Part shown: one piece after another, positions 3,212 through 18,484 of the stretch | Position numbering within the stretch: position 1 is the first letter of the stretch | Layout: each line of letters starts with the position of its first letter | Assembly: GCA_041663445.1 (NCBI GenBank) | Contig: JBAYMR010000001.1 | Location: 47,393-111,392, forward strand | DNA length: 64,000 nucleotides | Source of the DNA: Candidatus Micrarchaeia archaeon | Lineage (GTDB): Archaea > Micrarchaeota > Micrarchaeia > Anstonellales > Anstonellaceae | Direction: 5' to 3' | The notes under the pieces: generated by a model | Databases searched by the model: none | Told to the model about the DNA's origin: nothing | The model's input: the letters and a program-made list of their open reading frames with translations, nothing else | Program-made: the position numbers and the translations under genes

Positions 3212-3273
3212 TCAATGCCCCGTGACAGCACCTTTGCCACGCATTATTAATAAACGTTATAGAGATGCGAGGC

Positions 3274-4083: not shown

Positions 4084-4093
4084 ATGCCCACCC

Positions 4094-4540
4094 TTATGAA
4101 TACCTGCCCAATACGTTTTTCGTCCCGCGCTGCACGCCCGCCACCCCGAAGGGGGAGGTGTAGGTTATGTTCAGTGAAAAGTCATAGTATGCCCCTGCCG
4201 TGCCCGCCTGGGCCCCGCTGAACCGCAAGGTCTTCGTCTCGCCCGGCCCGAAAGTGGTGGCAGTGGTGTAGGCGCCGCTTGAGATGCTCAGGCGCGTCAT
4301 CGTGTATGTGCCTATGGCGTCCTTGTTCTGGACCACCAGCGTCACCGTGCCGTTTGCAAGCACGGTGCGCTCAAGGATGCCGAAAGGCCGCGCCTGCCCG
4401 CGCCAGTATTCGTCGGACTGCGAGATTTTCGCGTCCGATGTCACGCTGGGCACAAAGCCCACGAGGGATACGCCTATCAGCGCCACAAGGAGCACGACGG
4501 CCATTATGACGAGATATTCAGTGGCCCCTTGCGCGCGCAT
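4094..4540 (-). CDS. Pilin-like protein with an archaeal class-III (type IV prepilin-like) signal peptide
   Basis: MRAQG/ATEYLVIMAVVLLVALIGVSLVGFVP: short basic leader, invariant Glu at +3/+4, then a hydrophobic helix and a Thr/Gly-rich beta-rich domain. Paralog at 32873..33358. The annotated ORF extends to 4594, but the likely start is the internal Met at 4540; a TATA-like box sits at 4595-4602. Confidence 0.7.
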   Translation of the reverse strand: MRAQGATEYLVIMAVVLLVALIGVSLVGFVPSVTSDAKISQSDEYWRGQARPFGILERTVLANGTVTLVVQNKDAIGTYTMTRLSISSGAYTTATTFGPGETKTLRFSGAQAGTAGAYYDFSLNITYTSPFGVAGVQRGTKNVLGRYS

Positions 4541-4594
4541 TACAAAACCCGATGCCAACAAAAACACCTTCTGGTTCGGACGATTGGCACGCAA

Positions 4595-4602: not shown

Positions 4603-4666
4603 TTCGTTGCACTGGGCAGGGGGGATTGGAAAGAAGAAACAGGGCGGGATTGCAGGATTTTGCCCG

Positions 4667-4820
4667 AACCCCAACATGCAGGTTTTTAGTGGGATCGTAG
4701 GGATTTGCGTCGTTGCCGCTTCGCGACAACTTTGCATCCAAAAGCTTTGCTTTTGTCTGACCCCTAACATGCAGGTTTTCAGTGGGATCGTAGGGATTTG
4801 AACCCTAACATGCAGGTTTT
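4667..4820. repeat. 41-bp direct repeat x2 plus a truncated third copy (CRISPR-like mini-array?)
   Basis: aaccccaacatgcaggtttttagtgggatcgtagggatttg (4667-4707) and acccctaacatgcaggttttcagtgggatcgtagggatttg (4760-4800) are separated by a unique 52-bp segment. A third copy, aaccctaacatgcaggtttt (4801-4820), directly abuts copy 2 and then diverges. No cas genes in the window. Confidence 0.5.
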
Positions 4821-4852
4821 TTCTTTCCCCGAAGGGAGATCTGGAGCCTGCC

Positions 4853-4895
4853 GCGCTACCAAGTTACGCCACGACCCCCTATTTAACTACTTTTT
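4853..4895. repeat. Dispersed repeat family, copy A
   Basis: gcgctaccaagttacgccacgaccccctatttaactac shares aagttacgccacgaccccct with 15384-15403 and resembles gcgctaccgggttatgacgtg in copies C and D. Confidence 0.45.
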
Positions 4896-5216
4896 ACCAC
4901 ATAATTTCCGCCCTGACCCGCCGCTCTCTTCCGGCGGTGCCGCAATGGCTTATTATAGCGCTCGGTTTTTTAAATCAGCTTCAGCGTTTTGGAATGCTGA
5001 ATTTTTCAGCCCCAGGCTTGAGCCGGACAACCAGGGCATCATTCTCTTCCCCGGCCTCAAGGTCATTCCAGTTCTCGTTTATAGCGATTCTCAGGCAGTC
5101 CAGCCTCACATCAAAGCCCATCGAATCACCTCCGGTAGGTGTTTATCGTGGTTCACTCCAAATTCTATGCCGAAACAGACTGCCCAATCCGCACTTAACA
5201 CTCAGGAAATGGAAGT

Positions 5217-5441
5217 TCAATCCAGCTTCGGGAACGTTTGCTTGCTCTTGAACACTTCGTAGGTCGGCTTCAGCGCCGCAAGCACGAATACCAGCGCATA
5301 CCATGACCAGTCAAGCGAAAGAAGCGGCGGCCAAAGCTTTGCCAGCAAAAGCGCAAGGAAGAAAACGCTGATCTTCACCAGCCCCACGTCAAGCGCGCTC
5401 ATTTTCTTTGCCTTCGCATCCGCCCATTTCCAAAAGCCCAT
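5217..5441 (-). CDS. Small hypothetical membrane protein (~74 aa)
   Basis: ORF 5217..5558 trimmed to the internal Met (MGFWKWADAKAKK...) to avoid overlap with the Lrp gene. Two predicted TM helices. Confidence 0.35.
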   Translation of the reverse strand: MGFWKWADAKAKKMSALDVGLVKISVFFLALLLAKLWPPLLSLDWSWYALVFVLAALKPTYEVFKSKQTFPKLD

Positions 5442-5506
5442 GCGCTCACCTTGATTGAGTTTTTGCCAAGAAGCTTTTACCTCTTGCGGTCGAGCCCGTT
5501 GCCGCG

Positions 5507-6478
5507 CTATCCCTGCGGGAAATAGCAGAACCTGTATTCCTTCACTATTCGCACCCATGCCTGCGCGCTCATTATCCTGTGGAAGCGCCTCACCACGGAC
5601 TGCGTGATTTCGCGCACCTCGCGCTCGCCGCTCGCGCGCACGTCGTACATCAGCTCGTACTCCGACACTATGCGCATGACGCGGCGCACCTGCGGCATGG
5701 AAAGCAGGAAGGAGGAAACTGCGCGCACGTTCTCATCCGTGGGTGCTGACAGGTTGAGGAGCACGCGGTAGTGGCGGAAGCCCTCCATCTCGCTCCCCAG
5801 GTTTATGGTATAGCCCCTGATTATCTTGCGCTCCTGAAGCGACTTGAGGTGGTAGCGCGCAGTTTCGGGCGGCATGCCAGTTCGCTTCCCAAGGTCAGAA
5901 TAGGAGATGCGCGTGTTGCTGGCAACCGCGGAAAGGATTTCCCTGTCCTTCTGGCTTATCCTTTCCTGGCTGCGCTGCACGCCAAGCGTCACGGGATGCT
6001 TGGGCGAATCGGAGCTGCTGGAAAATGCGCGCGGCACCACGGTGGTCGTGCTCAGATGTACTGCCCAGTGCATGGATTGCACAATGCCCCGTAGGATGCG
6101 GTGCAGCCTCAGGCTTTTCCTGGCAAGGTCCGCGGTCCCTTCGCTTGCAATGCTCAGGGAAAGGTCCCACTCTCCCTCGCACTTCAAAAGCGAGAGGACG
6201 CCAAGCGAGAGAAGCTCGGATGCCACCTGCTTCTCCTTTCTGGTCGACACCGGCTTGAGCTTGAAGTTGAAGATATGGACGCCGTAGCCGACGCGTTCGC
6301 AGTCGATGAGCGCGGCAAACGAGCCGATGCTTCCGTGTGCAAGCAGCGAGGCTATGCGGCTCGAGGCGTTCTGCTTTGACACGCGGGCACTTGCCGCAAT
6401 CCTGGAAATCGGCTGGCGGCTGTCGCAGAGCAGCTGCGCAAGGATTTTGCGGTCTGTGGCGCTAAGTTCCCCTCCCAT
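5507..6478 (-). CDS. Lrp/AsnC-family transcriptional regulator, tandem-duplicated (two HTH-AsnC units)
   Basis: Two repeats of HTH plus RAM-like regions: ATDRKILAQLLCDSRQPISRIAASARVSKQNASSRIASL... and QKDREILSAVASNTRISYSDLGKRTGMPPETARYHLKSLQERKII... Confidence 0.7.
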   Translation of the reverse strand: MGGELSATDRKILAQLLCDSRQPISRIAASARVSKQNASSRIASLLAHGSIGSFAALIDCERVGYGVHIFNFKLKPVSTRKEKQVASELLSLGVLSLLKCEGEWDLSLSIASEGTADLARKSLRLHRILRGIVQSMHWAVHLSTTTVVPRAFSSSSDSPKHPVTLGVQRSQERISQKDREILSAVASNTRISYSDLGKRTGMPPETARYHLKSLQERKIIRGYTINLGSEMEGFRHYRVLLNLSAPTDENVRAVSSFLLSMPQVRRVMRIVSEYELMYDVRASGEREVREITQSVVRRFHRIMSAQAWVRIVKEYRFCYFPQG

Positions 6479-6905
6479 GCTTGACTTCCAGCAATATAAT
6501 TAAAAAAAGTTGCCATCTGTCAAGCATTTCACCCCGGAACTGCTTTTAGGGGCAGGCGAGAGTATCTACTTGGTGGGCGCAATGGGCATAGAGTGCGCGG
6601 CAAAGAGCGACAGGCGCGGACTAGGCACGCCTGCCCGGGCCTTTTTGCAAATAGTCGCCGCAAGGAAGCGAGGATGCAGCATAAGCACAGACTTCTTCGC
6701 GTGTGGGCATGCATAGGGAAAAGACCGACTGAAGACGACTGCAATGCTGTCCAGCCCCTCGCGCGTGCCCATGCGCCTGCCACCTCCAACTAACAATGAG
6801 GAAATCAAATGGGCGTACGAAACATTGCAACCAAGAATGCGGATCAAACTGGGAAGAAGTTGACATGTACCGCATAATCTGGTATTATTTCTAAATGGTG
6901 ATTTA

Positions 6906-7988
6906 TTGGAAAATGAAATTGTTGCACAGGCGGCAGGATTTGACGCGGGCAGCCTGCTGCCTTTCCTGCTGGCGCTTGCTGTTGCGCTTGTCGCGGCAAA
7001 AGTTGCAAACGCCCTGGTGAAAAAGGCGGCGAAAATGCTCGTTGGCAGGACAAAGACAAAACTGGATGATTTCCTGCTTGAAGCGCTTGACCTGCCGCTT
7101 ACGATATTCTTCACAGGTGTTGGCATATATGCTGCCGCTTTTCTTGCTGGGCTGGACACGCATCCCCTTTTCGGGTTTGCCGCAAAGGAGTTTGTGATAT
7201 TGGCGGGCGCTTATGCCGTGTATCAAGCGTTTTCAGCGCTGCTGCGCTGGTATGTGGAAGAGGCTGCAGCTGCAAGGAACCTGCCCTTGGCGGACCTCCA
7301 GTCCACGCTGCGCAGGGTGGGCGCGCTTTTCATCTTCTCGATTGCAGTCATAATGGCTCTGGACACTGCAGGCATCGAAGTGAACCCGCTTATCGCCTCG
7401 CTTGGCATCGCAGGCCTTGCCGTGGCGCTTGCCTTCCAGGACACGCTTGGCAACTTTTTTGCAGGCATCACTATTTCCGCAGACAGGCCGGTGCGCGAAG
7501 GGGACTACGTGCAGGTGGAGGGCGGCTATGAGGGATATGTACACAAGATAGGCTGGAGAAGCACGCAGATTCGCGCGCTTGCCAACAACATCGTGGTGGT
7601 GCCAAACTCCAAGCTTGCAGCAAGCATCATCACCAACTACTATGCTCCCGACAAGTCGCTCGCAGTCATTGTGCCAGTGTCAGTTGCATACAGTTCTGAC
7701 CTGAAAAAGGTGGAGCGCATCACCTGCCAGGTGGCATCTGATGCCCAGAAAAGGGTAAAGGGAGCATCGAAGGACTTCGAGCCTTTCATACGCTATGGGG
7801 CATTTGGCGATTCCGGCATATCCTTCAGCGCCATCCTCCGCGCGAATGAGTATGTTGACAGGTACCTGCTCACGCACGAGTTCATCAAGGCGCTGCACGC
7901 GCGCTATGCAAAGGAAGGCATCGAAATACCGTATCCCAAGCGGCACGTGTATGTGGAAAATCTGGGCAAGCGGAGGGGAATGAAGTGA
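6906..7988 (+). CDS. Small-conductance mechanosensitive channel (MscS family)
   Basis: N-terminal TM helices, the conserved MscS pore/beta-domain region GIAGLAVALAFQDTLGNFFAGI..., and a C-terminal cytoplasmic domain. The ORF caller used a TTG start. Confidence 0.85.
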   Translation: MENEIVAQAAGFDAGSLLPFLLALAVALVAAKVANALVKKAAKMLVGRTKTKLDDFLLEALDLPLTIFFTGVGIYAAAFLAGLDTHPLFGFAAKEFVILAGAYAVYQAFSALLRWYVEEAAAARNLPLADLQSTLRRVGALFIFSIAVIMALDTAGIEVNPLIASLGIAGLAVALAFQDTLGNFFAGITISADRPVREGDYVQVEGGYEGYVHKIGWRSTQIRALANNIVVVPNSKLAASIITNYYAPDKSLAVIVPVSVAYSSDLKKVERITCQVASDAQKRVKGASKDFEPFIRYGAFGDSGISFSAILRANEYVDRYLLTHEFIKALHARYAKEGIEIPYPKRHVYVENLGKRRGMK

Positions 7989-9469
7989 CAACTGACACAA
8001 AGGACATGCTCCGGATACTCCTGAAGGACAAGCATCTGGTAATGGCATCGCACACTGAGCCCTACACCCACGTCCACGAGGACGGGGTGGTGAAGCTTCG
8101 CACAGGCACCGGCGGGGTGGTCACTGCGCTTGACCCGCTCATGGCTTTCAACAAGGGCACGTGGGTTTCGGTTGGCACCGGAAAGGCTGACAAGAAGGCA
8201 GTTGACCGCGAGAACAAGGTGCGCGTGCCTGACGAAAATGGCTATTCCCTGCGCAGGATTTGGCTCACCAATCAGGAAAGGGACGGCTATCTTGACGGCG
8301 TGTCCAACGGGGCGCTCTGGCCGCTTTGCCACATGGCATACGTAAGGCCAAGGTTCGTGGACGCGGAATGGGAAGAATTCAAGAAGGTGAACCGCAAGTT
8401 TGCAAACGCAATATCCAAGGAATGCAGGCACAACACATTGGTGTGGATACATGACTTCCAGCTCTGCATGGTGCCCAAATACCTCAGGAAAATGCAGCCT
8501 GACATCACCATTGCCTTTTTCTGGCACATACCCTGGCCCAACCCGCAGGCGTTCTCGATATGCCCCTGGTCGAATGAAATCCTTGAGTCCCTGCTGTGCA
8601 ACGACCTGATGGGCTTCCACACCCAGCAATATTCATTCAACTTCCTGGACAGCGTGGACACTTCGCTTGAGGCTAGGGTGGACCGCCCCTCGCTTGCGGT
8701 ATACCACCGGAAAACGCCCACGTTTGTGCGGTCAAACCCCATAAGCATAGACTCGGAAAGCGTGAAGCGGCTTGCAGCACTGCCTCCTTCGGAATACGTC
8801 AAAAACCTCCTGGCGGAAAACGCCCTTGACAGCATGGAATTCGCAATAGGTGTGGACAGGCTGGATTACATAAAGGGGCTGCCCGAGAAAATCAAGGCGA
8901 TGGACGCATTCTTTACTCTCCACCCGGAATACATCGGCAAATTCTCGCTTCTGCAGATAGCCTCCCCGACAAGGGTTCACCAGCCCGCGTACCAGAAAGC
9001 GGCTTCCGATGTCACGAGGCTGACAAACGAGGTGAACGAAAAATACCAGGGCATGGCAAAGCACAATCCAAATTGGAAGCCCGTTGTACTGGTGTTGGAG
9101 CAGATAGACCGCGCCGATGTCTATTCCCTCTATTCCCTGGCAAGGCTGTGTATGGTGACCTCACTCCACGACGGGCTAAACCTCGTGAGCAAGGAGTTCG
9201 TGGCATCCCGCGCCAAGCGCGACGGGGCGCTCATACTCAGCAAGTTCACAGGCGCCGCAAACGAGCTTGCGGGCGCGCACCTGGTGAACCCCTACTCTGT
9301 GGAGGAGATTGTCAAGGCGATGCATTTTGCCCTCACGCAAAGCCCGCGGGAGCAGGCAAGGGACATGGCACTCCTTTCCCGCCAGGTTGCGGAAAGCGAC
9401 GTCTATGCCTGGTCATTCAACTTCCTCAAGGAGCTTCAGGCCGCGCACATGATGCGCAGGGTGGCATAG
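7985..9469 (+). CDS. otsA: Alpha,alpha-trehalose-phosphate synthase (GT20)
   Basis: Full-length GT20 similarity: ...GALWPLCHMAYVRPRF..., HDFQLCMVPKYLR, LVSKEFVASR. Followed by otsB after a 1-nt gap. Confidence 0.9.
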   Translation: MTTDTKDMLRILLKDKHLVMASHTEPYTHVHEDGVVKLRTGTGGVVTALDPLMAFNKGTWVSVGTGKADKKAVDRENKVRVPDENGYSLRRIWLTNQERDGYLDGVSNGALWPLCHMAYVRPRFVDAEWEEFKKVNRKFANAISKECRHNTLVWIHDFQLCMVPKYLRKMQPDITIAFFWHIPWPNPQAFSICPWSNEILESLLCNDLMGFHTQQYSFNFLDSVDTSLEARVDRPSLAVYHRKTPTFVRSNPISIDSESVKRLAALPPSEYVKNLLAENALDSMEFAIGVDRLDYIKGLPEKIKAMDAFFTLHPEYIGKFSLLQIASPTRVHQPAYQKAASDVTRLTNEVNEKYQGMAKHNPNWKPVVLVLEQIDRADVYSLYSLARLCMVTSLHDGLNLVSKEFVASRAKRDGALILSKFTGAANELAGAHLVNPYSVEEIVKAMHFALTQSPREQARDMALLSRQVAESDVYAWSFNFLKELQAAHMMRRVA

Positions 9470-10186
9470 ATGGAAATCAGGACAGTGGTGCTTGACTTCG
9501 ACGGGACGCTTGCGCCCATCAGGCGCGACCCATCAGCCGTGCGGCTGCCCGCCTCGATGCGCAGGCAGCTCGCTGTAATGGTTGCCGCCGGGCTTGAGGT
9601 GATGGTGCTTTCAGGCAGGCCATACTCTTTCCTTAAAGCACAGGAATTCCCGAAGGGCGTGCGCCTGTGCGGGAATTTCGGCAACCCGTCCGGCAGGCGG
9701 CAGGCAGGATTTGGAAAGGGATTCCTGCTTGCGCTTGGCAGGCTCGCAAAAATACGCGGCGTGGAAGTGGAGCGCAAGGCAGGCTATGCCGTGCATTACA
9801 GGAAGGCAAGGCAACAAGACATTGAAAAAGTGAAGAAGCTTGTCTACATTGCGGCTGATGAAGCAGGGGACGGCGCGTCCATGCTTTATGGGAGGAAGGC
9901 AGTGGAAATACTCCCCGCCGGGGTCATGCCCAAAGAGGAATTCCTGTCAAAGCTGGCGGGCGAAAGAAACCACGGCGTGCTTTTCATAGGCGACGACCCG
10001 TCCGACCTCGCGGCAATGCACGCGCTTCGCAAAAAGGGCAACTTTTCCTGCGCGCTTGTAAAGTCGGGGGAAGTGGACTCGGGAGTTGGCAGCTGGCCTG
10101 CAAAGCTTCTGAACAGGCGCGCGCTTGAGCGCTTCCTCAGCCGGCTTGCGCGCGCACAAGGTCGACGTAATTCACATCCAGGCTAA
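9470..10186 (+). CDS. otsB: Trehalose-6-phosphate phosphatase (HAD superfamily)
   Basis: HAD motif I LDFDGTL, motif IV GDDPSD, and an operon arrangement with otsA. Confidence 0.8.
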   Translation: MEIRTVVLDFDGTLAPIRRDPSAVRLPASMRRQLAVMVAAGLEVMVLSGRPYSFLKAQEFPKGVRLCGNFGNPSGRRQAGFGKGFLLALGRLAKIRGVEVERKAGYAVHYRKARQQDIEKVKKLVYIAADEAGDGASMLYGRKAVEILPAGVMPKEEFLSKLAGERNHGVLFIGDDPSDLAAMHALRKKGNFSCALVKSGEVDSGVGSWPAKLLNRRALERFLSRLARAQGRRNSHPG

Positions 10187-11141
10187 GTGATACCCGATTG
10201 CCGAGGTTCTTCTCAAGCGCTGCGCGCATCTCCTCCGCCTTTTCCTGCGTGATTGGCTTTGGCGAGTCAAGGGAGGCTGCTATGGCAAGGGAGCCGTCCT
10301 TCGCATGCTCGAACGAAACGTCCGTGAGCCTCGCGCCGAGTATGCCGTCAAGCTGCGAGGCAAGCACCTTTTCCGAGGTGGAGCTGATGCTGGAGGACTC
10401 GATGCTCTGCCACATTATCCAGGCAAGCGGCACCAGGATGAGCAGCAGAAGCACTGCGGAGGTCTGAAGCTTTTTCTTTGTCTCTTCCTCCGCAAACGAC
10501 CAGCGCGGGCTGAATTCCATAAGCCAGAAAACTGCGGACGCGGCAAAGTTTATGGCAACGATGTTCGCAAGGAACGTGAGCCCGCCGCCAAGTGCGATCA
10601 CTGGCTGCTTGAGCGCAAAGCCGATGCCCACCACGCAAAGGGGAGGCATCACCGCGACCGCGATTGCCACGCCGGGCAGCGCGGCGCCTATGCTTTTCTT
10701 GGTGAGCGCGTACGCCGCCGCCGTGCCGCTTGCAAGCGCCACGAACAGGTCAAGCGGGGTGGGGGCGGTGCGCAGCAATATCTCGCTGGTCACTGTGGCG
10801 TTTGGCACAAGAAGCGTGAGGAGCGCCACCAGGACTATCACAATCGCAACCCCCTTTGCCTCTGCCTCGATGGCGCCCGAGAAAAGCTTGATGTCGCCCT
10901 TCACCGCGCCAAGCGAGATGCCAATTATGGGCATGAGCAGCGGGGAGACCAGCATGGCGCCGATTATGACAGCAACGTTGTTGGTGAGAAGCCCGATGGT
11001 GGCGATGATTGCCGAAATGACGAGCATTGTGAAATACTCGTTTGACGGATGCGAGCCGCCGCCTATTTCCAGGCTTATCGCATCCTTTTCCTTCGGGCTT
11101 ATGCCGCCAAGGTAGTTCTTGAGCCATTGGATTATGTCCAT
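10137..11141 (-). CDS. DUF389-like integral membrane protein
   Basis: Multi-TM protein with VIIGAMLVSPLLMPIIGISLG, a pattern typical of the DUF389/TIGR00341 family. Its 3' end overlaps the otsB 3' end by ~50 bp (convergent). Confidence 0.55.
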   Translation of the reverse strand: MDIIQWLKNYLGGISPKEKDAISLEIGGGSHPSNEYFTMLVISAIIATIGLLTNNVAVIIGAMLVSPLLMPIIGISLGAVKGDIKLFSGAIEAEAKGVAIVIVLVALLTLLVPNATVTSEILLRTAPTPLDLFVALASGTAAAYALTKKSIGAALPGVAIAVAVMPPLCVVGIGFALKQPVIALGGGLTFLANIVAINFAASAVFWLMEFSPRWSFAEEETKKKLQTSAVLLLLILVPLAWIMWQSIESSSISSTSEKVLASQLDGILGARLTDVSFEHAKDGSLAIAASLDSPKPITQEKAEEMRAALEKNLGNRVSLSLDVNYVDLVRAQAG

Positions 11142-11229
11142 ATGCGCGATTTTTGCGCCAAACTTATTATTCTTACTGTGGTGCGTGCCGACGCAAACGC
11201 ATTAAAGCATTGGCGCGTTACAGAACCGC

Positions 11230-12186
11230 ATGGTGCTTGCCGAGCTTTTCACCCTGATAATCTCCATAGTCGTGCTTTCGCGCGCGGCGTCAGTCGTGGT
11301 GGACAACGCATCAAGGCTCGCGCGCTTCTTCAACGTGAGCACGCTTGCCATCGGGCTGCTGTTGATGTCGGTTGCCACTTCGCTGCCCGAGCTTTCAGTG
11401 TCCGTGATGTCATCGGTCGCTGGCGAGGGCGCGATTGCCGCCGGAAACGTGTTCGGCTCAAACATTGCAAACGTCCTGCTCATACTCGGCCTCGCCGCGG
11501 CGCTTTACGGCTTCAAGGTGAGGAGGGACATACTGCCGGACATTGCGATAGTGCTCCTTGCCACCACAGTGATTTCAGTATATATAATATACAAATCAAG
11601 CGTGGATGGGGGCGCGCTTTCCTTCTACGAGGGGGTTTTGCTGCTCCTGGTGTTTGCCTGGTATGCAAACAGGATACTGTCAAAAAAGAGGATTGACGAA
11701 GCCCCCGCGGCGTCAAAAATGAGCCTGCGCGACGGGCTCCACGCGTTCCTGTTCTTCGGCGCAGGCGTGGTGGTTGTGATAATAAGCTCCAGCTTTGTGG
11801 TGGACTCTGCTGTGTCGCTTGCGAAAATCGCAGGGCTTGCGGAAAGCTTCATAGGTGCCACCATAATAGCGATAGGCACCTCGCTCCCGGAGCTGTCAGT
11901 CGACCTTGCCGCAATAAGGAAAAAGCAGTACGGGCTTGCGCTCGGGGATGCAATCGGCAGCAACATGGCGAACCTCACGCTCGTGCTCGGCACTGCCGCG
12001 ATAATAAGCCCCATAGTGGTGCAGCTCAAGGTATTCTCTGTCGCGCTCCTATTTGCAATAATAGCGAACATGGCATTCTTCTACATCGCCGTGGTGAAGA
12101 AGGAATTCGGCAGGAAGGAAGGCATCGCCATGCTTGCGCTTTACGCGATATACATCATTGCGATATTCTACCTGCAGTTCGCATGA
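11230..12186 (+). CDS. Na+/Ca2+ exchanger (CaCA family, YrbG/NCX_Mj-like)
   Basis: Two alpha-repeat motifs: GSNIANVLLILG / GTSLPEL and GSNMANLTLVLG / ATSLPEL. Confidence 0.8.
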   Translation: MVLAELFTLIISIVVLSRAASVVVDNASRLARFFNVSTLAIGLLLMSVATSLPELSVSVMSSVAGEGAIAAGNVFGSNIANVLLILGLAAALYGFKVRRDILPDIAIVLLATTVISVYIIYKSSVDGGALSFYEGVLLLLVFAWYANRILSKKRIDEAPAASKMSLRDGLHAFLFFGAGVVVVIISSSFVVDSAVSLAKIAGLAESFIGATIIAIGTSLPELSVDLAAIRKKQYGLALGDAIGSNMANLTLVLGTAAIISPIVVQLKVFSVALLFAIIANMAFFYIAVVKKEFGRKEGIAMLALYAIYIIAIFYLQFA

Positions 12187-12247
12187 GCCGCGCGGCGGGG
12201 TGCGTTGGGAAACCTGCCGGTGCACATTCTCCATTTGAGTTTCCTAT

Positions 12248-13552
12248 CTAGTAGAGCCCCGATATCTGCGAGAAGATGACAATCAGCAGAAGCGCAATCG
12301 GGACGAGCACGCGCGAGGCGAATGCAAAATAGCCATCGTAGCGGGGCGGGAGCCCGATTGCACCCGAGATGCCCTTATGGGGCAGGAGATAGGCGCAGGA
12401 GATTGCCACCGCAAGCGCTGAGAACGGCGCGAGGAAAGACCCGAAAAAGAAATCGAACAGGTCCAGGAAAGGCTTTCCGAACATCGAAAGCGTTAGCGGG
12501 GAATATGAGAGTGCAGAAAGCATTCCCACAAGGAAGATTCCCGCGCCGGCAATCGCGCCCCATTTCTTCCCGAAAGTGACGAACGACACGTTTACGTGCT
12601 CGACCATGGAGATTACCGATGTAAAAGCCGCCGCGAAGAGAAGCCCGAAGAAAAGTGCGCCGACGATTGCACCTAGAATACCTTGCGACAGGAAGAAGAG
12701 CGGGAGCGTCTCGAACGAAAGCGCAAGCCCGGTGCCAGGGGAGGAAAGCGTGGAGGCGAGCATTGCCACTGCGACGAATGCAAGCGCGGATGCTGCGGTG
12801 TCGGCGCCTGCGACCTGGATTGAGGATGAGAATATGTCCTTTCCGCGCTTCAGGTGCATCCCGTATGTGAACATTATGCCGTACCCCACTGACAGGGAGA
12901 AGAGCACCTGCGAGAGCGCATAATACCATGTGCGCGGCTCGAATATCTTCTCAGCCCCTGAAAAAGCGTTTTGCCGGAACGAATCAACCGCGCCGTCGAG
13001 CGTGCACGCGTAAGCCGCAAGGATGACAAGGGAAATGAAAAGCAGGGGGACGAGCTTCCCGGTGATTGGCTCGATGCCCTTGCTGATTCCGCGGAAAACC
13101 GTGAAATACGCTGCAGCGAAAATCAGGATGAAGTACGCGATGGGTGAAAAGTCGCTTTGCATGTGCTGGAACGAGGGCGCTGAGCCGAGAAGGAAATTCC
13201 CGGCAAACCAAAGCGTCCACGCGCACAGGACCATGTAATAGCCGGTTATCACAAGGCTCACGATGACCGGGAAAAAGCCGAGTGCCTCTCGGATTGGCCT
13301 TTTCAGGAACGGGATGTTCTTGGTTTGCCAAACCGACTTTGCAAAGCTTTTTTTCTCCCTGAACCCCTGTCCCGTTTCCATGAGGAAAAGCGGTATGCCT
13401 ATTATCGCAAGGCAGGCAAGATAGGGTATGAAAAACCAGATGCCGCCGTTCTCCGAAGCTATGTAGGGGAAGCGCCAGATGTTGCCAAGCCCGACTGCCG
13501 CCCCGATTGAGGCAAGGACAAATGCAGTCTTCGAAGACCATTGCTCAGCCAT
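12248..13552 (-). CDS. Neurotransmitter:sodium symporter (NSS/SNF) family transporter
   Basis: GLGNIWRFPY signature near the N-terminus and 11-12 TM helices. Start trimmed to MAEQWSSK. Confidence 0.85.
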   Translation of the reverse strand: MAEQWSSKTAFVLASIGAAVGLGNIWRFPYIASENGGIWFFIPYLACLAIIGIPLFLMETGQGFREKKSFAKSVWQTKNIPFLKRPIREALGFFPVIVSLVITGYYMVLCAWTLWFAGNFLLGSAPSFQHMQSDFSPIAYFILIFAAAYFTVFRGISKGIEPITGKLVPLLFISLVILAAYACTLDGAVDSFRQNAFSGAEKIFEPRTWYYALSQVLFSLSVGYGIMFTYGMHLKRGKDIFSSSIQVAGADTAASALAFVAVAMLASTLSSPGTGLALSFETLPLFFLSQGILGAIVGALFFGLLFAAAFTSVISMVEHVNVSFVTFGKKWGAIAGAGIFLVGMLSALSYSPLTLSMFGKPFLDLFDFFFGSFLAPFSALAVAISCAYLLPHKGISGAIGLPPRYDGYFAFASRVLVPIALLLIVIFSQISGLY

Positions 13553-13565
13553 GCATCTATGATTC

Positions 13566-15032
13566 TTGGGAAAATCAAATAAACACGCCTGCAGGGGGGA
13601 AATGCCTGCCGCCGACACTCTTTTTAATGCTCAGCCGCTTTATCTGCCCATGCAGAATCCTGTTCCCAAGCTGGTTTCCCGCACAAAGGTGTGGTCGGGC
13701 TACCTTTTCATACTCCTGGGGCTGCTCATGGTGCTGATGGTTATCCGCGCCGCCTTTTTCGGGAATATACCTGAAGACAAGAGGATATGGGTGGAAATCA
13801 CCCTGCTTCTCCTGGTGGCGCTCGTGGCCGAAAGGCTGGTGCAGCAATGGAAGCAGCCGTTCGTGATGGTGCTGCTCCTTTTGGGCGTCCTGATTTCGCC
13901 ATACACGCTGAATGCAGTATGGCCCGCTGTGATGGGGGCAGCCACGCCCATCCTGCAAGGTGTTGGCATACAGCCGCCAGCATCAACGCCCGAGCTTTTG
14001 GGTGAAAGCCAAATCGTCAAGGTCTTCGCAAATATCGGTGTCATAATACTCCTTTTCAGGATAGGCATGCACTCCGAAATAGAAAAGGTCTTCAACATGA
14101 AGAATTTCCTGGTGGCATTGGGGGGCGTAATTCTTCCCTTTGTGGCAGGATTCATGTTTGCGCAGTGGAGCGGGGGCGGGTTCGCATTCTCGCTTTTCGT
14201 GGGTGCCGCGCTGACCGCCACTTCGGTCGGCATCACGGTCGCCGTGCTTGAGGAAATGAAGGCAATAGACAAGCCGTTTGCGCAGGTGATACTCGGCGCC
14301 GCGGTCATAGACGATGTCTTGGCTTTGGTCGCGCTCGGGCTGGTAAGCAGCATGCCATCCGACCTTGCGGCAATCTCAATCGCCCCGATTGTGCAGGTGA
14401 TGGGCATTGCGCTGGTATTCGTGGTGTCCGGGCTGATGCTTGGCAAGATTTTCGTGGAGCGCTTCTTCAGTTATGAGGAGGAAGAAATTTCCAAGCGGAC
14501 GCTTTCTGGCATGCTGGCGCTGCTTTTCTTCTATTCCTTTGCCTCCGAGGCGCTGGGGCTTTCTGCCATAGTGGGCGCGTTCATCGCAGGGCTCGTGATA
14601 AGCTATTCGCCCATGGCGCACAAGCTGAACAAGGCGCTGTTCGCAATGGACGTCATTTTTGTCCCGATATTCTTCATCTCGCTCGGGATGCTGGTGAACG
14701 TTTGGGATATCCCTGGCGCGCTGGTGCCTGTTATTGCGCTCACCGCAATCGCCATAATCACCAAAATGATAGGCTGCGGCCTGCCCGCCGTGCTCATGGG
14801 GATGAAACCGAAGGAAGCCCTGCTGGTCGGCTGGGGGATGGTCCCGCGCGGCGAAATCGCGCTCGTTATCGCACTGATTGGCATAACCACGCTCGACCCG
14901 ACGGGCAAGCCTGTGCTCGACGCCGCGGAATACACCATCATCGCCTCGATGGCGTTCCTTTCCACGGTGATTGTGCCCGTGGGGCTGAAGGCGCTGGTTG
15001 CCAGGGCAGAATCCTCATCAAGCCAGGGCTAA
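13566..15032 (+). CDS. Monovalent cation:proton antiporter (CPA1/CPA2, Na+/H+ exchanger-like)
   Basis: About 12 TM helices with a conserved CPA core (GVIILLFRIGMHSE..., ALVIALIG...). The true start may be the internal Met at ~13650. Confidence 0.75.
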   Translation: MGKSNKHACRGEMPAADTLFNAQPLYLPMQNPVPKLVSRTKVWSGYLFILLGLLMVLMVIRAAFFGNIPEDKRIWVEITLLLLVALVAERLVQQWKQPFVMVLLLLGVLISPYTLNAVWPAVMGAATPILQGVGIQPPASTPELLGESQIVKVFANIGVIILLFRIGMHSEIEKVFNMKNFLVALGGVILPFVAGFMFAQWSGGGFAFSLFVGAALTATSVGITVAVLEEMKAIDKPFAQVILGAAVIDDVLALVALGLVSSMPSDLAAISIAPIVQVMGIALVFVVSGLMLGKIFVERFFSYEEEEISKRTLSGMLALLFFYSFASEALGLSAIVGAFIAGLVISYSPMAHKLNKALFAMDVIFVPIFFISLGMLVNVWDIPGALVPVIALTAIAIITKMIGCGLPAVLMGMKPKEALLVGWGMVPRGEIALVIALIGITTLDPTGKPVLDAAEYTIIASMAFLSTVIVPVGLKALVARAESSSSQG

Positions 15033-15352
15033 TGCGCGTGCTTGATTATGGGCGCGCCGCGCCAATATCCGCGCTCTTGCCGCGCATGAAAATTTCCTTG
15101 GTGTTTCGTGGCAGCGCGTATGGAGCCAAGTATAAATGGGCCAATTTAGGCGCCTGAATCGCGCTCGGCGCATAATCTTGCCCAATTGTACACGAGGCAA
15201 TAAGGTCAGTACGGCACAAAAGGAGGACATGGCACTTGGCATTCGCCTAGATCTGAGTGCATATGAAGCCAAAGGCAACCTGACCGTCCAGCTCAAGGAG
15301 AGCTTGACGCCATGTGGCAAAAAAGCGAAAAGCCAGTCAAAAAATCAAAAGT

Positions 15353-15415
15353 TTATCTCGATGACCCCAGGACAAAATGTAATAAGTTACGCCACGACCC
15401 CCTACTTTTGGCACT
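15353..15415. repeat. Dispersed repeat family, copy B
   Basis: tctcgatgaccccaggacaaaatgtaataagttacgccacgaccccctacttttggcac; ~85% identical over 50 bp to 16791-16840. Confidence 0.45.
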
Positions 15416-15509
15416 AAGTCACGTCGAAGGGGCTTTCACCCCCGATTCCATGACTTGGTAGCGTTAGTTTATGTATAAAGTTAAAAAAGAGATGCAGGTC
15501 TTCTGGCAA

Positions 15510-16616
15510 CTAAAGCGGCTTTGGTTCGATTACCTTCCCGCCGGATGCCACCACCATGCGGCGCCCATCTTCAAAGATAGCATAGACGTCAGCCCGTATC
15601 GGCGAGATGGGCGCGTAAACTACATCCTGGTGCGTGCTTGCATCCACAACTCCGCTCCACGACCCTTTCGTTCCGAAATGGATGTTTTTCCCGTACGCTA
15701 TGTGTACGCCTGCTTTTTCCTCTTCTAGTATGTTCCCAAGCCTGGCGCTCGGATTCAAGCCAAATCCGAGTTCGGCGACGTTTGCGGCATTCGGGTCCTT
15801 TTCTATCAGAGCCAGGAGCTTCCTCGCAAAAGCAGAGTCGCCCGGCACCCCCACTATCCGGTTTTTCTCTACGAGCAGGAGAACTGTCTTCCCGTCCTCT
15901 GCAGAATAGACGGGCCATACGCCCTCGGTTTGCGAATTTCCAATCGCCGCAAGGGCGCCAGGGTGCACGCCTTCATAGGGCGTGCAGTAAAATTCAGCGC
16001 CTGGCAGGTTTGTAAACCCGTCGCCCGGATTCCTGCTGAATCCGGGGCTCATGTGCCAGTTCGCGTGCCTTGTGTCGACATACAATGAGAAGACCAGTCC
16101 CGGGGGGACATTGAAAGTTATTTCAAACCCAACAGCATCCTTCACCATGTTCATGGCTTTGGAGCCAAGCTCATTCATGGCGTCATGGTCCACAGACATG
16201 GCGCCCTCATTGCTTGAAACCACTGTCGGCATGCTAAGCCCGCGAACCGACCCTGTTTGTTTTGCTATTTCTTTAAGGTCAGCGGTCTGCGAATAGGTTG
16301 TCATTGCGACGACAATGTCCGCAGATTTTATTATGCCAACCACATTGGAGACTGGTTCGCCTCCAAATAGTCCGTCGGAAGGAAAATTGGCATTGTGTTT
16401 GCCGGGTTCCGCATATTTTAGAAGGGGGAGCACCTGAAAGCCAATCCTTTTTGACAGGACGGAAGCGGCTTTCACCCATCTAAGCAAAAGGTCGCGCCTG
16501 TCCTGCCTTTCAGGGTCAAGAGGGCCGTTCGGCTCATCGGTTACAAAGAGCAGCTTTTCGCCTTTCTTCGGCTGGAGGGCGCTGATGATCAATTTTTGGA
16601 TTCTTTCCTGAGACAT
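15510..16616 (-). CDS. M29-family aminopeptidase (AmpS/PepS/aminopeptidase T-like)
   Basis: N-terminal region ...SALQPKKGEKLLFVTDEP... and C-terminal KAGVHIAYGKN, which matches the HIAxG motif of M29 peptidases. The ORF extends to 16838; start trimmed to MSQERIQ. Confidence 0.65.
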   Translation of the reverse strand: MSQERIQKLIISALQPKKGEKLLFVTDEPNGPLDPERQDRRDLLLRWVKAASVLSKRIGFQVLPLLKYAEPGKHNANFPSDGLFGGEPVSNVVGIIKSADIVVAMTTYSQTADLKEIAKQTGSVRGLSMPTVVSSNEGAMSVDHDAMNELGSKAMNMVKDAVGFEITFNVPPGLVFSLYVDTRHANWHMSPGFSRNPGDGFTNLPGAEFYCTPYEGVHPGALAAIGNSQTEGVWPVYSAEDGKTVLLLVEKNRIVGVPGDSAFARKLLALIEKDPNAANVAELGFGLNPSARLGNILEEEKAGVHIAYGKNIHFGTKGSWSGVVDASTHQDVVYAPISPIRADVYAIFEDGRRMVVASGGKVIEPKPL

Positions 16617-16790
16617 GTTCCCCGACAGTTTTTGTCCTGAGAAGTCTTTTGTTGAACCGCTACATCCTTTTTGACTGAAATAAATGTTTTTTCTGAAAAT
16701 CATGTACCCACCCAGTCCATTTTCTGCATAGAAGTGCTTAAAAAGAATGGGTTGTGGAAAGTGCTCTTTCCAGTCAAAAACAGTTTTCTT

Positions 16791-16881
16791 TCTCGATGGC
16801 CCCAAGACAAAACGTAATAGGATACGCCATGCCCCCATCGTGCGCTACCGGGTTATGACGTGCAACACTTTAAATAGGTTT
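16791..16881. repeat. Dispersed repeat family, copy C (contains the TATA box TTTAAATA at 16869-16876)
   Basis: tctcgatggccccaagacaaaacgtaataggatacgccatgcccccatcgtgcgctaccgggttatgacgtgcaacactttaaataggttt. The 3' ~60 bp is nearly identical to 18372-18430. It lies immediately upstream of the AbiEi-like gene. Confidence 0.5.
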
Positions 16882-17014
16882 CAAAAAACTTTGGGCTTGC
16901 TCGCCCGCCATTTCTTTCTCAAACCAATCCAAAATGACTATCATTTTGTCTTAAACCAAGACGAAATGATATCTCCAGATACCCTTAAAAACACTAGTTA
17001 CCTAATAGGTAACT

Positions 17015-17617
17015 ATGTATTCCGAAATTCCCTATGCCTGCATGCGCGCGTACGCGCTGCTCTTTTCTCGCTTCGGGGCAAGCCGCCCCTTCGCCCAATC
17101 GGAGCTGGATTTCGTTTTCTCCACCCCAATGAAGAAGAAGGTGTTTTCCATCCTGCTGAATGCAGGCTGGATAAGAAAGCGCGACAGGCTGAATTACCTG
17201 TGCAACGAGCCTGGCGAGGTATTCCGGCACCTGCTGGACTTCAAGGTGCCGCAAATGCTGGGGAAGGCGCAAAAGCCCTATGCGTTTTCCGGCCTCTCGG
17301 CAATCGAGGTGTGGAGCGACTACTCCTACACGCAGCGAAGCGTTGAGCGCTCGCCGTATTTCATCAGGGTGCTGCGCAGGGATCTGCCTTACTGGAAGGG
17401 ATTCTTTGCCGCAAAAAGGGTGCCAGTCTACGTTGGAAAGGGAACTTCTATTGGGGAGTTTGCTATCTTACAGCCAGCGGCAAAGCTGGAATCGGTTGAA
17501 AAGGACGGGCTGTCTGTCGAGCCGCTCCAGGATGCGATGGCCGAGGCAAGGGCGAATGAGATGCATTATTATGCGTATGAGTATATGAAAAAGAAATACG
17601 GGCGAATCAATGGATAA
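17015..17617 (+). CDS. Putative AbiEi-like antitoxin/transcriptional regulator (type IV TA), 200 aa
   Basis: Inferred from context only: a ~200-aa protein with an 8-nt overlap to the downstream AbiEii-like nucleotidyltransferase. I cannot confirm a wHTH from sequence alone. Confidence 0.4.
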   Translation: MYSEIPYACMRAYALLFSRFGASRPFAQSELDFVFSTPMKKKVFSILLNAGWIRKRDRLNYLCNEPGEVFRHLLDFKVPQMLGKAQKPYAFSGLSAIEVWSDYSYTQRSVERSPYFIRVLRRDLPYWKGFFAAKRVPVYVGKGTSIGEFAILQPAAKLESVEKDGLSVEPLQDAMAEARANEMHYYAYEYMKKKYGRING

Positions 17618-18299
17618 GTTTGCTGTACGCGAAAAGGAAGTGTTCGGCGCGCTCGAAGCGCTTGTGCACTCAAAGTGCAAGTTTGCCGTGATAGGCGGCT
17701 ATGCAGTGAATGCCTATGCCTTGCCCAGGTTTTCAGTGGACTGCGACCTTGTGGCAAGCAAGGATGGCGCGCGCAAGGTTGCTCACAAGCTGCTTGCATG
17801 CGGTTTCCATCGCGTACCTCTCCCAAAGCACGCGCCATACGTGAACTTCGTGCGCCTTGAAAAAGAAGTTCTGCCAAGTATTGTTGCGGCATTCGACATC
17901 CTTTATGATGAGGTGCACGACAGGCAGTCAGGCACAACTTTTACCGCGGAGTGGATATTTCTCCATTCATCCATAGTTTCTCTTCCGGCAAAGACATTTG
18001 CGGGTCAACTGAAGGTGCGCGTAGTAGACGCAGATACGCTTTTTGTGATGAAGTTCTGCTGCGCAAGGGCAACTGACATCCGGGACATTTTCATGTTCTG
18101 TGACAAGGTGAAAGACTGGGAATGGGCCAGGGCTGAAATTGCGGCGAGAATGGATTTGGCAGCGCAGCACAGGAAGATAATGCAAAAGGTGTCTGGCACG
18201 GAATTCAGGAAGGATTTGGGCGGCGTTTATGGCTATGTGGAGCCTGCGGCATTCGGAAAAAGGCTGAAAATCTTGGAAAGCGCGCTCAAAATTTCCTAG
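17610..18299 (+). CDS. AbiEii/DUF1814-like nucleotidyltransferase (putative TA toxin)
   Basis: NTase-fold signature FAVIGGYAVNAYALPRFSVDCDLV (GG...PRFS.D.D), characteristic of AbiEii/AbiGii-family nucleotidyltransferases. Confidence 0.6.
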   Translation: MDKFAVREKEVFGALEALVHSKCKFAVIGGYAVNAYALPRFSVDCDLVASKDGARKVAHKLLACGFHRVPLPKHAPYVNFVRLEKEVLPSIVAAFDILYDEVHDRQSGTTFTAEWIFLHSSIVSLPAKTFAGQLKVRVVDADTLFVMKFCCARATDIRDIFMFCDKVKDWEWARAEIAARMDLAAQHRKIMQKVSGTEFRKDLGGVYGYVEPAAFGKRLKILESALKIS

Positions 18300-18339
18300 G
18301 AAATGTGCTCTGCCGCAAGGTTAATTAACGCCGTACACA

Positions 18340-18430
18340 AAATAAGATTACATGGCATCGTCGACGAAGTTCACGCCATGCCCTCATCGTGCGCTACCGG
18401 GTTATGACGTGCAACACTTTAAATAGGTTT
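18340..18430. repeat. Dispersed repeat family, copy D (contains TTTAAATA at 18418-18425)
   Basis: ...cacgccatgccctcatcgtgcgctaccgggttatgacgtgcaacactttaaataggtttt; 2 mismatches over ~60 bp relative to copy C. Sits just downstream of the AbiEii-like gene, so copies C and D bracket the TA pair. Confidence 0.5.
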
Positions 18431-18484
18431 TAGGGAACTGGCGCAAGCCATTGGGAAATGCGCGGACTGCGCAGGCCAAGCGCT

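Follow-up and report, generated by a model that had tools for sequence, protein, structure and literature searches.

A pair of near-identical direct repeats in the 64,000-nt stretch of DNA analysed here (the window), which comes from a Micrarchaeia (DPANN) archaeon, marks one cassette in a 13.7-kb array (4782-18439) at the 5′ end of a tRNA-Trp gene. As judged from sequence, each copy comprises on the minus strand a putative BRE/TATA promoter, a leader, and the first 13 nt of tRNA-Trp(CCA). The repeats are probably scars left at the junctions where DNA inserted into the 5′ end of this gene, and serial site-specific insertion, in which each cassette brings a replacement tRNA promoter, is the reading that fits best and is likely to be correct. 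DPANN genomes are tiny, and the gain and loss of accessory genes in them is poorly understood; the locus shows a single tRNA gene used as a loading dock for stacked units of one to three genes.

Organization of the array

Three units make up the array: a toxin-antitoxin (TA) pair of ~1.5 kb, an aminopeptidase cassette of ~1.4 kb, and a 10.4-kb transport/trehalose island. The features are as follows.

4782-4878, minus strand: intact, intron-containing tRNA-Trp(CCA) (ARAGORN; Rfam 52 bits), the proximal anchor of the array
4879-4975, minus strand: A-type right-end module, which now lies upstream of the working tRNA-Trp
4976-15332: cargo of cassette 3 (Na/H antiporter, SNF symporter, CaCA, DUF389, OtsB, OtsA, MscS, and a Lrp-type regulator)
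15333-15402, minus strand: copy B, a 19-nt exact tRNA-Trp stub (15402 to 15384) followed by a Z module (15383 to 15333)
15403-15509, minus strand: B-type right-end module, joined to intact tRNA-Trp in L007 and L023
15510-16616, minus strand: M29/NicX-like aminopeptidase, the cargo of cassette 2
16770-16818, minus strand: Z module with oligo-T runs (ATTACGTTTTGTCTTGGGGCCATCGAGA...TTTTTGACTGG), forming the left end of the aminopeptidase cassette
16819-16890, minus strand: copy C, module X (box TATTTAAA at 16876 to 16869) and an 18-nt degenerate tRNA-Trp stub (GGGGGCATGGCGTATCCT, 16836 to 16819); right end of the TA cassette
16984-17014, plus strand: predicted promoter region of the TA operon, a TATA-like CTTAAAAA (16984-16991) and a palindrome
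17015-17617, plus strand: antitoxin candidate, 200 aa, with a winged-helix-like N-terminus, distantly AbiEi_4-like
17610-18299, plus strand: toxin candidate, 229 aa, a minimal nucleotidyltransferase, distantly AbiEii-like
18300-18372, minus strand: left-end module of the TA cassette (GAACTTCGTCGACGATGCC...), which follows the stub and is conserved in L009 and L012
18373-18439, minus strand: copy D, module X (box TATTTAAA at 18425 to 18418) and a 13-nt tRNA-Trp stub (GAGGGCATGGCGT, 18385 to 18373)

The working tRNA-Trp of the window is best read as the gene at 4782-4878, displaced by three insertions that each begin at a tRNA stub. All stubs lie on the minus strand, as does the tRNA gene (15384-15402, identical at 19/19 positions; 16819-16836; 18373-18385), and copy D forms the distal boundary of the array, 45 nt past the stop of a GT2 gene. 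Stub-like matches at ~9999 and ~15665 fall inside coding sequence and were treated as chance.

The repeat search returned a single strong direct repeat, 16824-16890 versus 18373-18439 (67 nt, 93% identity), which flanks the overlapping open reading frames 17015-17617 and 17610-18299. Copies C and D differ at one position within the first 58 nt (57/58) and have in common an exact 46-nt core (16836-16881 and 18385-18430; 0 expected in shuffles). The near-identical repeats that an earlier note on this DNA had described around the gene pair 17015-18299 are thereby confirmed, although the coordinates given there (16791-16881 and 18340-18430) start 33 nt too early, and those 33 nt differ between C and D. 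Copy B is indeed related to C, but at 78% over 69 nt (15333-15401 versus 16770-16836) and not at ~85% identity; the match covers the portion of C that is missing from D. The related copy A proved to be the 5′ end of the genuine intron-containing tRNA-Trp(CCA) (4782-4878, minus strand). The motif GTTAYGMCRYG(A)CCCC, noted as common to all copies, occurs four times against 0.35 expected; three occurrences are copies A, B, and C, and the fourth (48981-48996, plus strand) is unrelated. It is the reverse complement of the 5′ strand of the tRNA acceptor/D-stem, GGGGTCGTGGCGTAAC, and the suggested att-site or tRNA-fragment origin is supported, the repeats being a tRNA-Trp promoter (as predicted) plus a 5′ stub.

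Promoter modules of the tRNA-Trp gene

With regard to the promoter, the sequence immediately preceding intact tRNA-Trp in L009 (82.5% over 63 nt), L012, and L013 aligns with module X of copy C, and there the TTTAAATA box is conserved, as CTAT(A/T)TAAA, 32-33 nt before the tRNA 5′ end. Orthologous X copies are 74-83% alike, and relatives with an 83-88% identical toxin carry an X-type predicted promoter and an intact tRNA-Trp ~115 nt from the pair. The earlier proposal of an archaeal promoter within the repeats thus holds, but not that it supplies the TA operon: the TTTAAATA box is the predicted minus-strand TATA of the tRNA-Trp promoter and would serve that gene. Just ahead of the TATA box, with the minus strand read 5′ to 3′, stands a purine-rich GAAAC; since archaeal BRE-TATA polarity sets the direction of transcription, transcription at copy C would point away from the TA operon.

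The X, A, and B families all possess TATA-like boxes, and for each of them one genome shows a fusion to intact tRNA-Trp and a different genome a fusion to a stub junction. The A-type module, for example, has homologues both in the flanks of stub junctions (L020, L021, and L032) and beside the tRNA in L026.

The toxin-antitoxin cassette

The antitoxin gene lies upstream and overlaps the toxin gene by 8 nt. The toxin candidate matches Pfam PF08843 at E=3e-4 (21.2 bits versus a cut-off of 22.5), through an N-terminal motif at residues 16-63 only, and PADLOC AbiEii at E=1.3e-5; many toxin homologues of 42-50% identity bear PF08843 or the NCBI name AbiEii/AbiGii. The antitoxin candidate of the window has no Pfam match, and 3 of its 16 aligned homologues match PF13338 AbiEi_4 (best E=3.7e-4); against the PDB it gave weak wHTH matches only (E=0.14-0.26). 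The AbiEi/AbiEii label applied previously therefore stands as a distant likeness with sub-threshold scores, and we use it as a putative assignment. Compared with AbiE type IV TA systems, the pair likewise forms a two-gene overlapping operon, with the GG...D.D nucleotidyltransferase region of the AbiEii N-terminus in the second protein, a winged-helix-like N-terminus in a small first protein, and a palindrome at the promoter; both proteins, however, are shorter, with 200 and 229 aa, and score under the thresholds of the families. L019 and L026 carry a canonical AbiEi_1/AbiEii pair (PF09407 and PF08843, E=3e-37) as a cassette of its own, and the window pair therefore appears to be a distinct DPANN-wide subfamily.

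The palindrome, AGTTACCTAATAGGTAACT, is perfect over 19 nt (16996-17014), abuts the ATG, and is kept in relatives together with the TATA-like box. The phage collection gave no match, and the plasmid collection yielded only ~25% identical nucleotidyltransferases on haloarchaeal megaplasmids.

Empty site, cargo exchange and stub arrays in relatives

The homology relationships, an empty site, a cargo swap at one site, and stub arrays are demonstrated by comparison with relatives, all of which are metagenomic contigs; species-representative genomes yielded no relative by an exact 22-mer of the repeat or by the aminopeptidase protein. The cargo of cassette 3 is missing from L007 at the same site: there the aminopeptidase and its B-type module lead directly into an intact tRNA-Trp, at the point where the 10.4-kb block stands in the window, and copy B of the window matches L007 at 93% up to tRNA position 19 and diverges beyond. 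In both L007 and L013 the left boundary is a stub plus Z, the partly similar flank preceding the stub containing CTTTAACTTTC, and the right boundary is tRNA-Trp; between these like boundaries lies the aminopeptidase in L007 and the TA pair in L013. Other cargo at the site includes Fic in L023 (~1.25 kb) and SWIM+HNH+AbiE in L026 (~3.9 kb).

Across related metagenomic contigs, stubs separate small integrase-less cassettes (Fic, nucleotidyltransferase pairs, ParE, AbiE, SWIM+HNH), with five same-orientation stubs on one contig in L021, four in L025, and three in L012. In L012, a 22-nt direct repeat, AAACGACGGGGTCGTGGCGTAA, flanks the pair, and a 675-bp ParE cassette adjoins. The junctions are combinatorial, joining upstream families X, A, B, E, and F to downstream tRNA, Z, T, G, K, and S, and homology breaks at the 12-14-nt stub core in ~30 junctions with unrelated flanks. 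The recombination-bounded cassette suspected in the earlier note is thus supported, as cassette content varies among relatives; the refutation foreseen there, that the repeats would have no tie to variable gene content, fails because the repeat units flank differing genes.

A single viral-contig match to the Z pattern (L016) lacks the stub and was set aside as an AT-rich chance match. An ancestral empty site of the form GT2-promoter-tRNA was not recovered among the GT2 orthologue contexts L034, L035, and L036, because these are not syntenic.

Search for a recombinase and for mobile forms

No Phage_integrase domain was detected among the called genes at 7610-28299, and no integrase in any stub-array contig of the relatives examined. 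In favour of site-specific insertion, a tyrosine integrase (PF00589, E=4e-18) adjoins a stub remnant beside the aminopeptidase, in L003-L006 only; against it, the junction in L003 has no Z module, and the integrase gene is intact and points away from the stub. Searched by tblastn against the window, the L003 integrase gave nothing below E=0.9, including beside copies B and C, and no integrase-like open reading frame pieces of the int(N)/int(C) type lie beside the window stubs. Neither an excised circle nor a TA-less allele of this strain was seen. The sole short contig, a 1563-bp Logan contig (L002, 16852-18414) considered as a circular mini-element, was rejected: its two ends coincide with the unique 31-mers that come first and last around the exact 46-nt repeat, which makes it a k=31 assembly unitig between the repeats.

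Proposed mechanism and alternatives

In the serial-insertion reading, the tRNA would contribute its first 12-14 nt, GGGGTCGTGGCGTA, as the recombination core, beyond which degenerate similarity extends to about the D loop. An inserted unit would consist of a left-end module (Z or GAACTTCG type), cargo, and a right-end module (X, A-type, or B-type) carrying a BRE/TATA promoter and leader, so that the tRNA rebuilt downstream of the insert would remain transcribed. As a new unit enters at the tRNA-proximal end, the earlier promoter would be left joined to a 13-19-nt tRNA stub. Copy D would then be the oldest promoter-plus-stub, and copy C the promoter delivered by the TA unit and since orphaned. 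We infer the activity of the promoters, the involvement of a recombinase, and the direction and order in which the units were inserted; crossover by a tyrosine recombinase is most likely, and it is placed in trans because no unit encodes one. The 57/58 identity of C and D, together with their common derived stub variant GCATGG, which would disrupt the acceptor stem, suggests a recent gene conversion or re-insertion on top of an older event, and a simple serial model would accordingly need an extra conversion step.

A more far-reaching interpretation, which we regard as possible but doubtful, is an integron-like gene-cassette system of Micrarchaeia anchored on the tRNA-Trp 5′ end, with a trans-acting recombinase and a 14-nt tRNA core. 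Its cassettes, small, circularizable, and recombinase-less, would have a standard left end, and the right end of each would also act as a replacement tRNA promoter; insertion, stacking, and shuffling by the recombinase at this core would yield strain-variable arrays rich in TA and defence genes.

Homologous recombination alone, which we consider improbable, would need only one ancient duplication of the tRNA 5′ end and no dedicated recombinase. The modules would then act as homology arms (X/A/B, ~80 nt; stub plus Z, ~70 nt; the tRNA itself) for Campbell-type insertion, allelic cassette replacement, and gene conversion. This would agree with the absence of an integrase from every array; the near-identity of C and D over 67 nt, compared with 74-83% for orthologous X copies, resembles conversion, and a circle with X, a stub, and the TA pair, crossing over in X-stub, would give exactly the observed structure. 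However, ~30 junctions with unrelated flanks break at the same 12-14-nt core, many adjacent cassettes have only this core in common, which is too short for an efficient process, and the repeats around the pair in L012 are just 22 nt long.

It is far less probable that the repeats, instead of being recombination scars, have been retained in duplicate for a function, either as promoter or regulatory elements or as small-RNA genes, in the control of the TA pair and its neighbours. A good TATA box is present in both C and D, copy D would read antisense into the 3′ end of the toxin gene, and the oligo-T runs of Z could terminate a ~75-nt transcript. On the other hand, the predicted polarity at copy C directs transcription off the operon, the operon is preceded by a conserved predicted promoter and a palindrome of its own, and relatives bear X on one side of the TA pair only. 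A structured RNA or small-RNA gene was rejected: no stable fold was found (z = -0.7, -0.6, and +0.7), 11 stub-Z sequences contained no compensatory pairs, and there was no Rfam match.

A split or trans-spliced tRNA-Trp, in which 5′ half genes (the stubs) would be combined with 3′ halves from separate genes, was rejected as hardly credible. Split tRNAs occur in another DPANN archaeon, Nanoarchaeum equitans, and several 5′ fragments and two additional 3′ half-like segments (4640-4781) lie near one tRNA gene. However, the locus has an intact tRNA-Trp with its intron; the stubs stop at tRNA positions 13-19, where neither a split nor an intron is known, and run into Z or another cassette module instead of a complement of a 3′-half leader; and the C/D stub changes break the acceptor stem.

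Comparison with known systems

Serial insertion, the preferred reading, finds its closest precedent in the pTN3-like integrases of archaea, which integrate in the tRNA 5′ half and leave the tRNA expressed from an element-borne promoter (PMC8371274); 5′-end integration in archaea has so far been linked to this one integrase family, in Thermococcales (PMC8371274). As in pTN3-like elements (PMC8371274, PMC5495485), whose attB lies in the tRNA 5′ half, the insert takes up the 5′ portion of the tRNA (here, a core at tRNA positions 1-14), the rebuilt tRNA lies under an element-supplied promoter (here, of predicted activity), and a partial tRNA copy remains at the far junction. Those elements, however, encode SSV-family 'suicidal' integrases whose gene contains attP and is split on integration, whereas the units here are integrase-less, 0.7-10 kb long, without int(N)/int(C), have a core of just ~14 nt, and use dedicated promoter modules (X, A, B) in place of an integrase promoter. 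Among the usual marks of tRNA att repeats, same-orientation tRNA-identical repeats and an empty site (L007, and the L007/L013 cargo) were found; an integrase within or next to the bounded DNA was not found in the window array.

Tandem accretion at tRNA genes and streptococcal CIMEs (PMC5704250) are similar in keeping attL/attR-type repeats while integration and transfer genes are missing. Those cases, however, are bacterial, occupy the 3′ end of the target gene, derive from decayed ICEs/IMEs, and usually number one or two units beside a functional element, whereas the present arrays use the 5′ end, reach five or more units of one to three genes, and contain no decayed transfer or integrase genes and no adjoining cognate element that could be found.

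The stacked units, which carry TA, defence, peptidase, and osmoprotection genes, differ between close relatives, and the promoter of each, if active as predicted, keeps an essential single-codon tRNA expressed. If a trans-acting recombinase is responsible, the locus would offer a tractable archaeal analogue of cassette platforms, and the stub core plus Z module a practical marker for the flexible gene pool in Micrarchaeia metagenomes.

Acinetobacter plasmid dif modules (PMC6449649, PMC13141974) and integron arrays resemble these arrays in their small recombinase-less modules, often TA, their short recombination sites, and their shuffling between replicons by a recombinase presumably encoded elsewhere. 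The paired XerC/XerD sites and alternating orientation of dif modules are absent here, all copies being direct, and integrons have a hairpin attC beside an intI/attI platform, whereas neither intI nor attC is present, no integrase was found, and the junction modules show no significant fold or covariation. The site here is instead a tRNA 5′ fragment, and a working tRNA gene closes the array. If the integron-like interpretation were true, the locus would represent a platform new to archaea and mechanistically distinct from both integrons and dif modules.

Origin of the Repeats

The window lies on a metagenomic contig of 164,855 bp. The region contains a single strong direct repeat, 16824-16890 versus 18373-18439 (67 nt, 93% identity), with one mismatch in the first 58 nt and a 46-nt repeat core that is identical in both copies and had no equivalent in 100 shuffles. 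Two overlapping ORFs, 17015-17617 (200 aa, the antitoxin candidate) and 17610-18299 (229 aa, the toxin candidate), lie between the copies. The repeat pair C/D of the earlier note is thus real and brackets the gene pair, but was started 33 nt too early, on bases that are not shared.

An intron-containing tRNA-Trp(CCA) gene is located at 4782-4878 on the minus strand (ARAGORN, Rfam). The four related repeats are described below in terms of stubs (the first 13-19 nt of tRNA-Trp left at a putative insertion junction), module Z (at the left end of cassettes), and modules X, A-type, and B-type (predicted promoter/leader modules at the right end).

Copies of the tRNA-Trp-derived repeat
Copy A, minus strand: 5′ end of the intact tRNA-Trp (4782-4878)
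Copy B, 15402 to 15333, minus strand: exact first 19 nt of tRNA-Trp, then the ~50-nt module Z
Copy C, 16890 to 16770, minus strand: module X with TATTTAAA, followed by a degenerate stub of 18 nt (GGGGGCATGGCGTATCCT) and by Z
Copy D, 18439 to 18373, minus strand: X and a 13-nt stub, beyond which the sequence diverges, as the gene pair's 3′ flank

Copies C and B are 78% identical over 69 nt. The motif that had been proposed to unite all copies occurs four times (0.35 expected); it is found in A, B, and C as the reverse complement of the tRNA acceptor/D-stem strand, while the fourth occurrence (48981-48996, plus strand) is unrelated to them.

Directly after the gene (4640-4781, minus strand) come two more partial tRNA-Trp 3′ halves, which start on the anticodon-loop side and reach the 3′ end. 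The first is interrupted in the T-loop region by an insert of ~50 nt, and in the related contig L013 the tRNA likewise has an extra 3′ half with such an insert behind it. The region further downstream (452-4594) codes for a pilin-like protein that bears a class III signal peptide, a CPBP-type membrane protease, and a HerA/FtsK/TrwB-like ATPase (919 aa) whose long acidic tail is of low complexity; this ATPase is the conserved tRNA-Trp neighbor in L007, L009, and L023. The extra halves may be 3′-side att remnants of this pilin/ATPase block or intron-bearing pseudo-halves. L003 has a tRNA-Arg(TCT)-like gene missed by ARAGORN (13491-13700), with a ~40-nt insert in the T-loop region, followed by another 3′-end fragment with its own insert, which suggests that non-canonical introns or 3′-side scars are common in the clade.

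Module X and the Gene Pair

Toxins 83-88% identical to that of the window are encoded on L009-L011, L012, and L013-L015, where an intact tRNA-Trp on the opposite strand precedes the gene pair by ~115 nt. Module X of copy C aligns directly upstream of these tRNAs (82.5%, 76.6%, and 73.8% identity), and a CTAT(A/T)TAAA box, preceded by a purine-rich GAAAC, is kept 32-33 nt upstream of the tRNA start. On the basis of this box and alignment, module X in minus-strand reading is the predicted tRNA-Trp promoter and leader, its polarity following archaeal BRE-TATA rules. D-arm-like sequences are also present within module X (16840-16866, direct copy GTCATAACCCGGTAGCGC) and the B-type module (15440-15470, inverted copy GCTACCAAGTCATGG); these could be arm sites of a recombinase or older scars.

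The suggestion that the repeats supply an archaeal promoter therefore holds for X, but as a predicted minus-strand tRNA-Trp promoter; the gene pair has its own TATA-like box (16984-16991), conserved in relatives. Between this box and the antitoxin ATG, which it abuts, is a perfect 19-nt palindrome, AGTTACCTAATAGGTAACT (16996-17014), kept in L009, L012, L013, and L021 and probably serving as the autoregulation operator of a leaderless operon. The segment between the operon promoter and module X (16891-16983) is ~60-85 nt longer than in relatives, the added sequence containing an imperfect hairpin, ATCATTTCGTCTTGGTTTAAGACAAAATGAT.

In the 229-aa protein, for which NCBI gives a Candidatus Micrarchaeia archaeon MAG as source, similarity to AbiEii is confined to the N-terminal nucleotidyltransferase motif and lies under the Pfam threshold. 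This protein belongs to a large DPANN family, many members of which carry PF08843 or an AbiEii/AbiGii name, and has ~25% identical relatives on haloarchaeal megaplasmids. The 200-aa protein has no Pfam match; 3 of its 16 homologues weakly match AbiEi_4, and its profile touches winged-helix regulators in PDB. For the AbiEi/AbiEii assignment, "AbiE-like" serves as a reasonable working label and does not amount to demonstrated membership.

Array Layout and Cargo

Order of the array, minus strand
GT2 gene, then copy D (X and stub)
Toxin-antitoxin unit ending in X, then the C stub
Z, aminopeptidase, and B-type module, then the B stub
Z, 10.4-kb transporter/trehalose block, and A-type module, then the intact tRNA-Trp

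All comparisons were made on metagenomic contigs, among which an excision product was not seen. The L007 aminopeptidase is 90% identical to that of the window, and in L007 the B-type module joins an intact tRNA-Trp directly, with a 93% match to the window up to tRNA position 19; this junction is the site of the 10.4-kb block in its empty state. The block itself (4976-15332) behaves as a single inserted unit, an osmoprotection island, and encodes an NhaP-type antiporter, SNF symporter, CaCA exchanger, DUF389 protein, trehalose-6-P phosphatase and synthase, MscS, and an Lrp-type regulator. The NhaP gene also follows an equivalent stub-Z junction in L021 and L031.

L007 and L013 both have stub and Z at the left and tRNA-Trp at the right, with a partly similar flank containing CTTTAACTTTC before the stub, and the cargo between these like boundaries differs (aminopeptidase in L007, toxin-antitoxin pair in L013). 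The tRNA-Trp site is occupied by a Fic gene in L023 (~1.25 kb) and by SWIM, HNH, and a canonical AbiEii/AbiEi pair in L026 (~3.9 kb). A Z pattern search of JGI metagenomes recovered 15 genuine stub-Z junctions with unrelated flanks, and a fuzzy stub search detected same-orientation arrays of five stubs in L021, four in L025, and three in L012. Cargo between stubs includes Fic, a DUF6036 nucleotidyltransferase with a TrmB-type regulator, an MNT-like nucleotidyltransferase, an AAA_33 kinase, a ParE pair (675 bp), and secreted proteins. In L012, a 22-nt repeat, AAACGACGGGGTCGTGGCGTAA, is found on both sides of the gene pair. The truncated Cys-rich repeat protein at the window start (17-451) has a 536-aa homologue in L025 (1378-2988), inside a stub-bounded cassette.

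Mechanism of Array Formation

Approximately 30 distinct junctions were classified by upstream and downstream family. Free assortment is seen between the upstream families (X, A, B, E, and F) and the downstream ones (intact tRNA, Z, toxin-antitoxin-type flank, and three more), the homology switch falling at a 12-14-nt core. X, A-type, and B-type each occur in two contexts, joined to an intact tRNA in one genome and at a stub junction in a different one. This is as predicted by serial insertion at the tRNA-Trp 5′ end, in which each unit would bring its own promoter module. Homologous recombination alone is an unlikely source of the array, since the crossover core is short and fixed and the flanks are unrelated, features of the sequences that argue for site-specific recombination instead. 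It is quite improbable that the repeats are regulatory elements, and that the stubs represent a split tRNA is barely credible.

Under serial insertion, the recombinase would act in trans, because an integrase is absent from all array contigs examined, the window included. A 438-aa tyrosine integrase (PF00589, E = 4e-18) adjoins a stub remnant beside the aminopeptidase in L003-L006. In L003 it is intact (11254-12704) and has a C-terminal zinc ribbon, its start lying 60 nt away from the tRNA-Pro(CGG) 5′ end. The opposite flank carries T4SS-like genes (TrbL, TrbC, pilin) along with genes for a methyltransferase and an AIPR protein; insertion of a conjugative-type element at a tRNA 5′ end is the probable explanation.

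Copies C and D are identical at 57 of 58 positions, whereas orthologous X copies are 74-83% alike, and the two share a GCATGG variant of the stub, which would disrupt the acceptor stem. It follows that the older event was overlain by a recent gene conversion or re-insertion.

Comparison with Known Systems

In archaea, integration into a tRNA 5′ half with tRNA expression from an element promoter has been reported only for pTN3-like suicidal integrases (PMC8371274), whose split integrase is absent here. No account of such arrays in DPANN was found in the full-text literature. Acinetobacter dif modules (PMC6449649, PMC13141974) and integron arrays are likewise modular, toxin-antitoxin-rich sets of recombinase-less cassettes, although none of their defining sites were found here. 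Tandem accretion and CIMEs (PMC5704250) similarly involve stacked att-bounded units without integrases.
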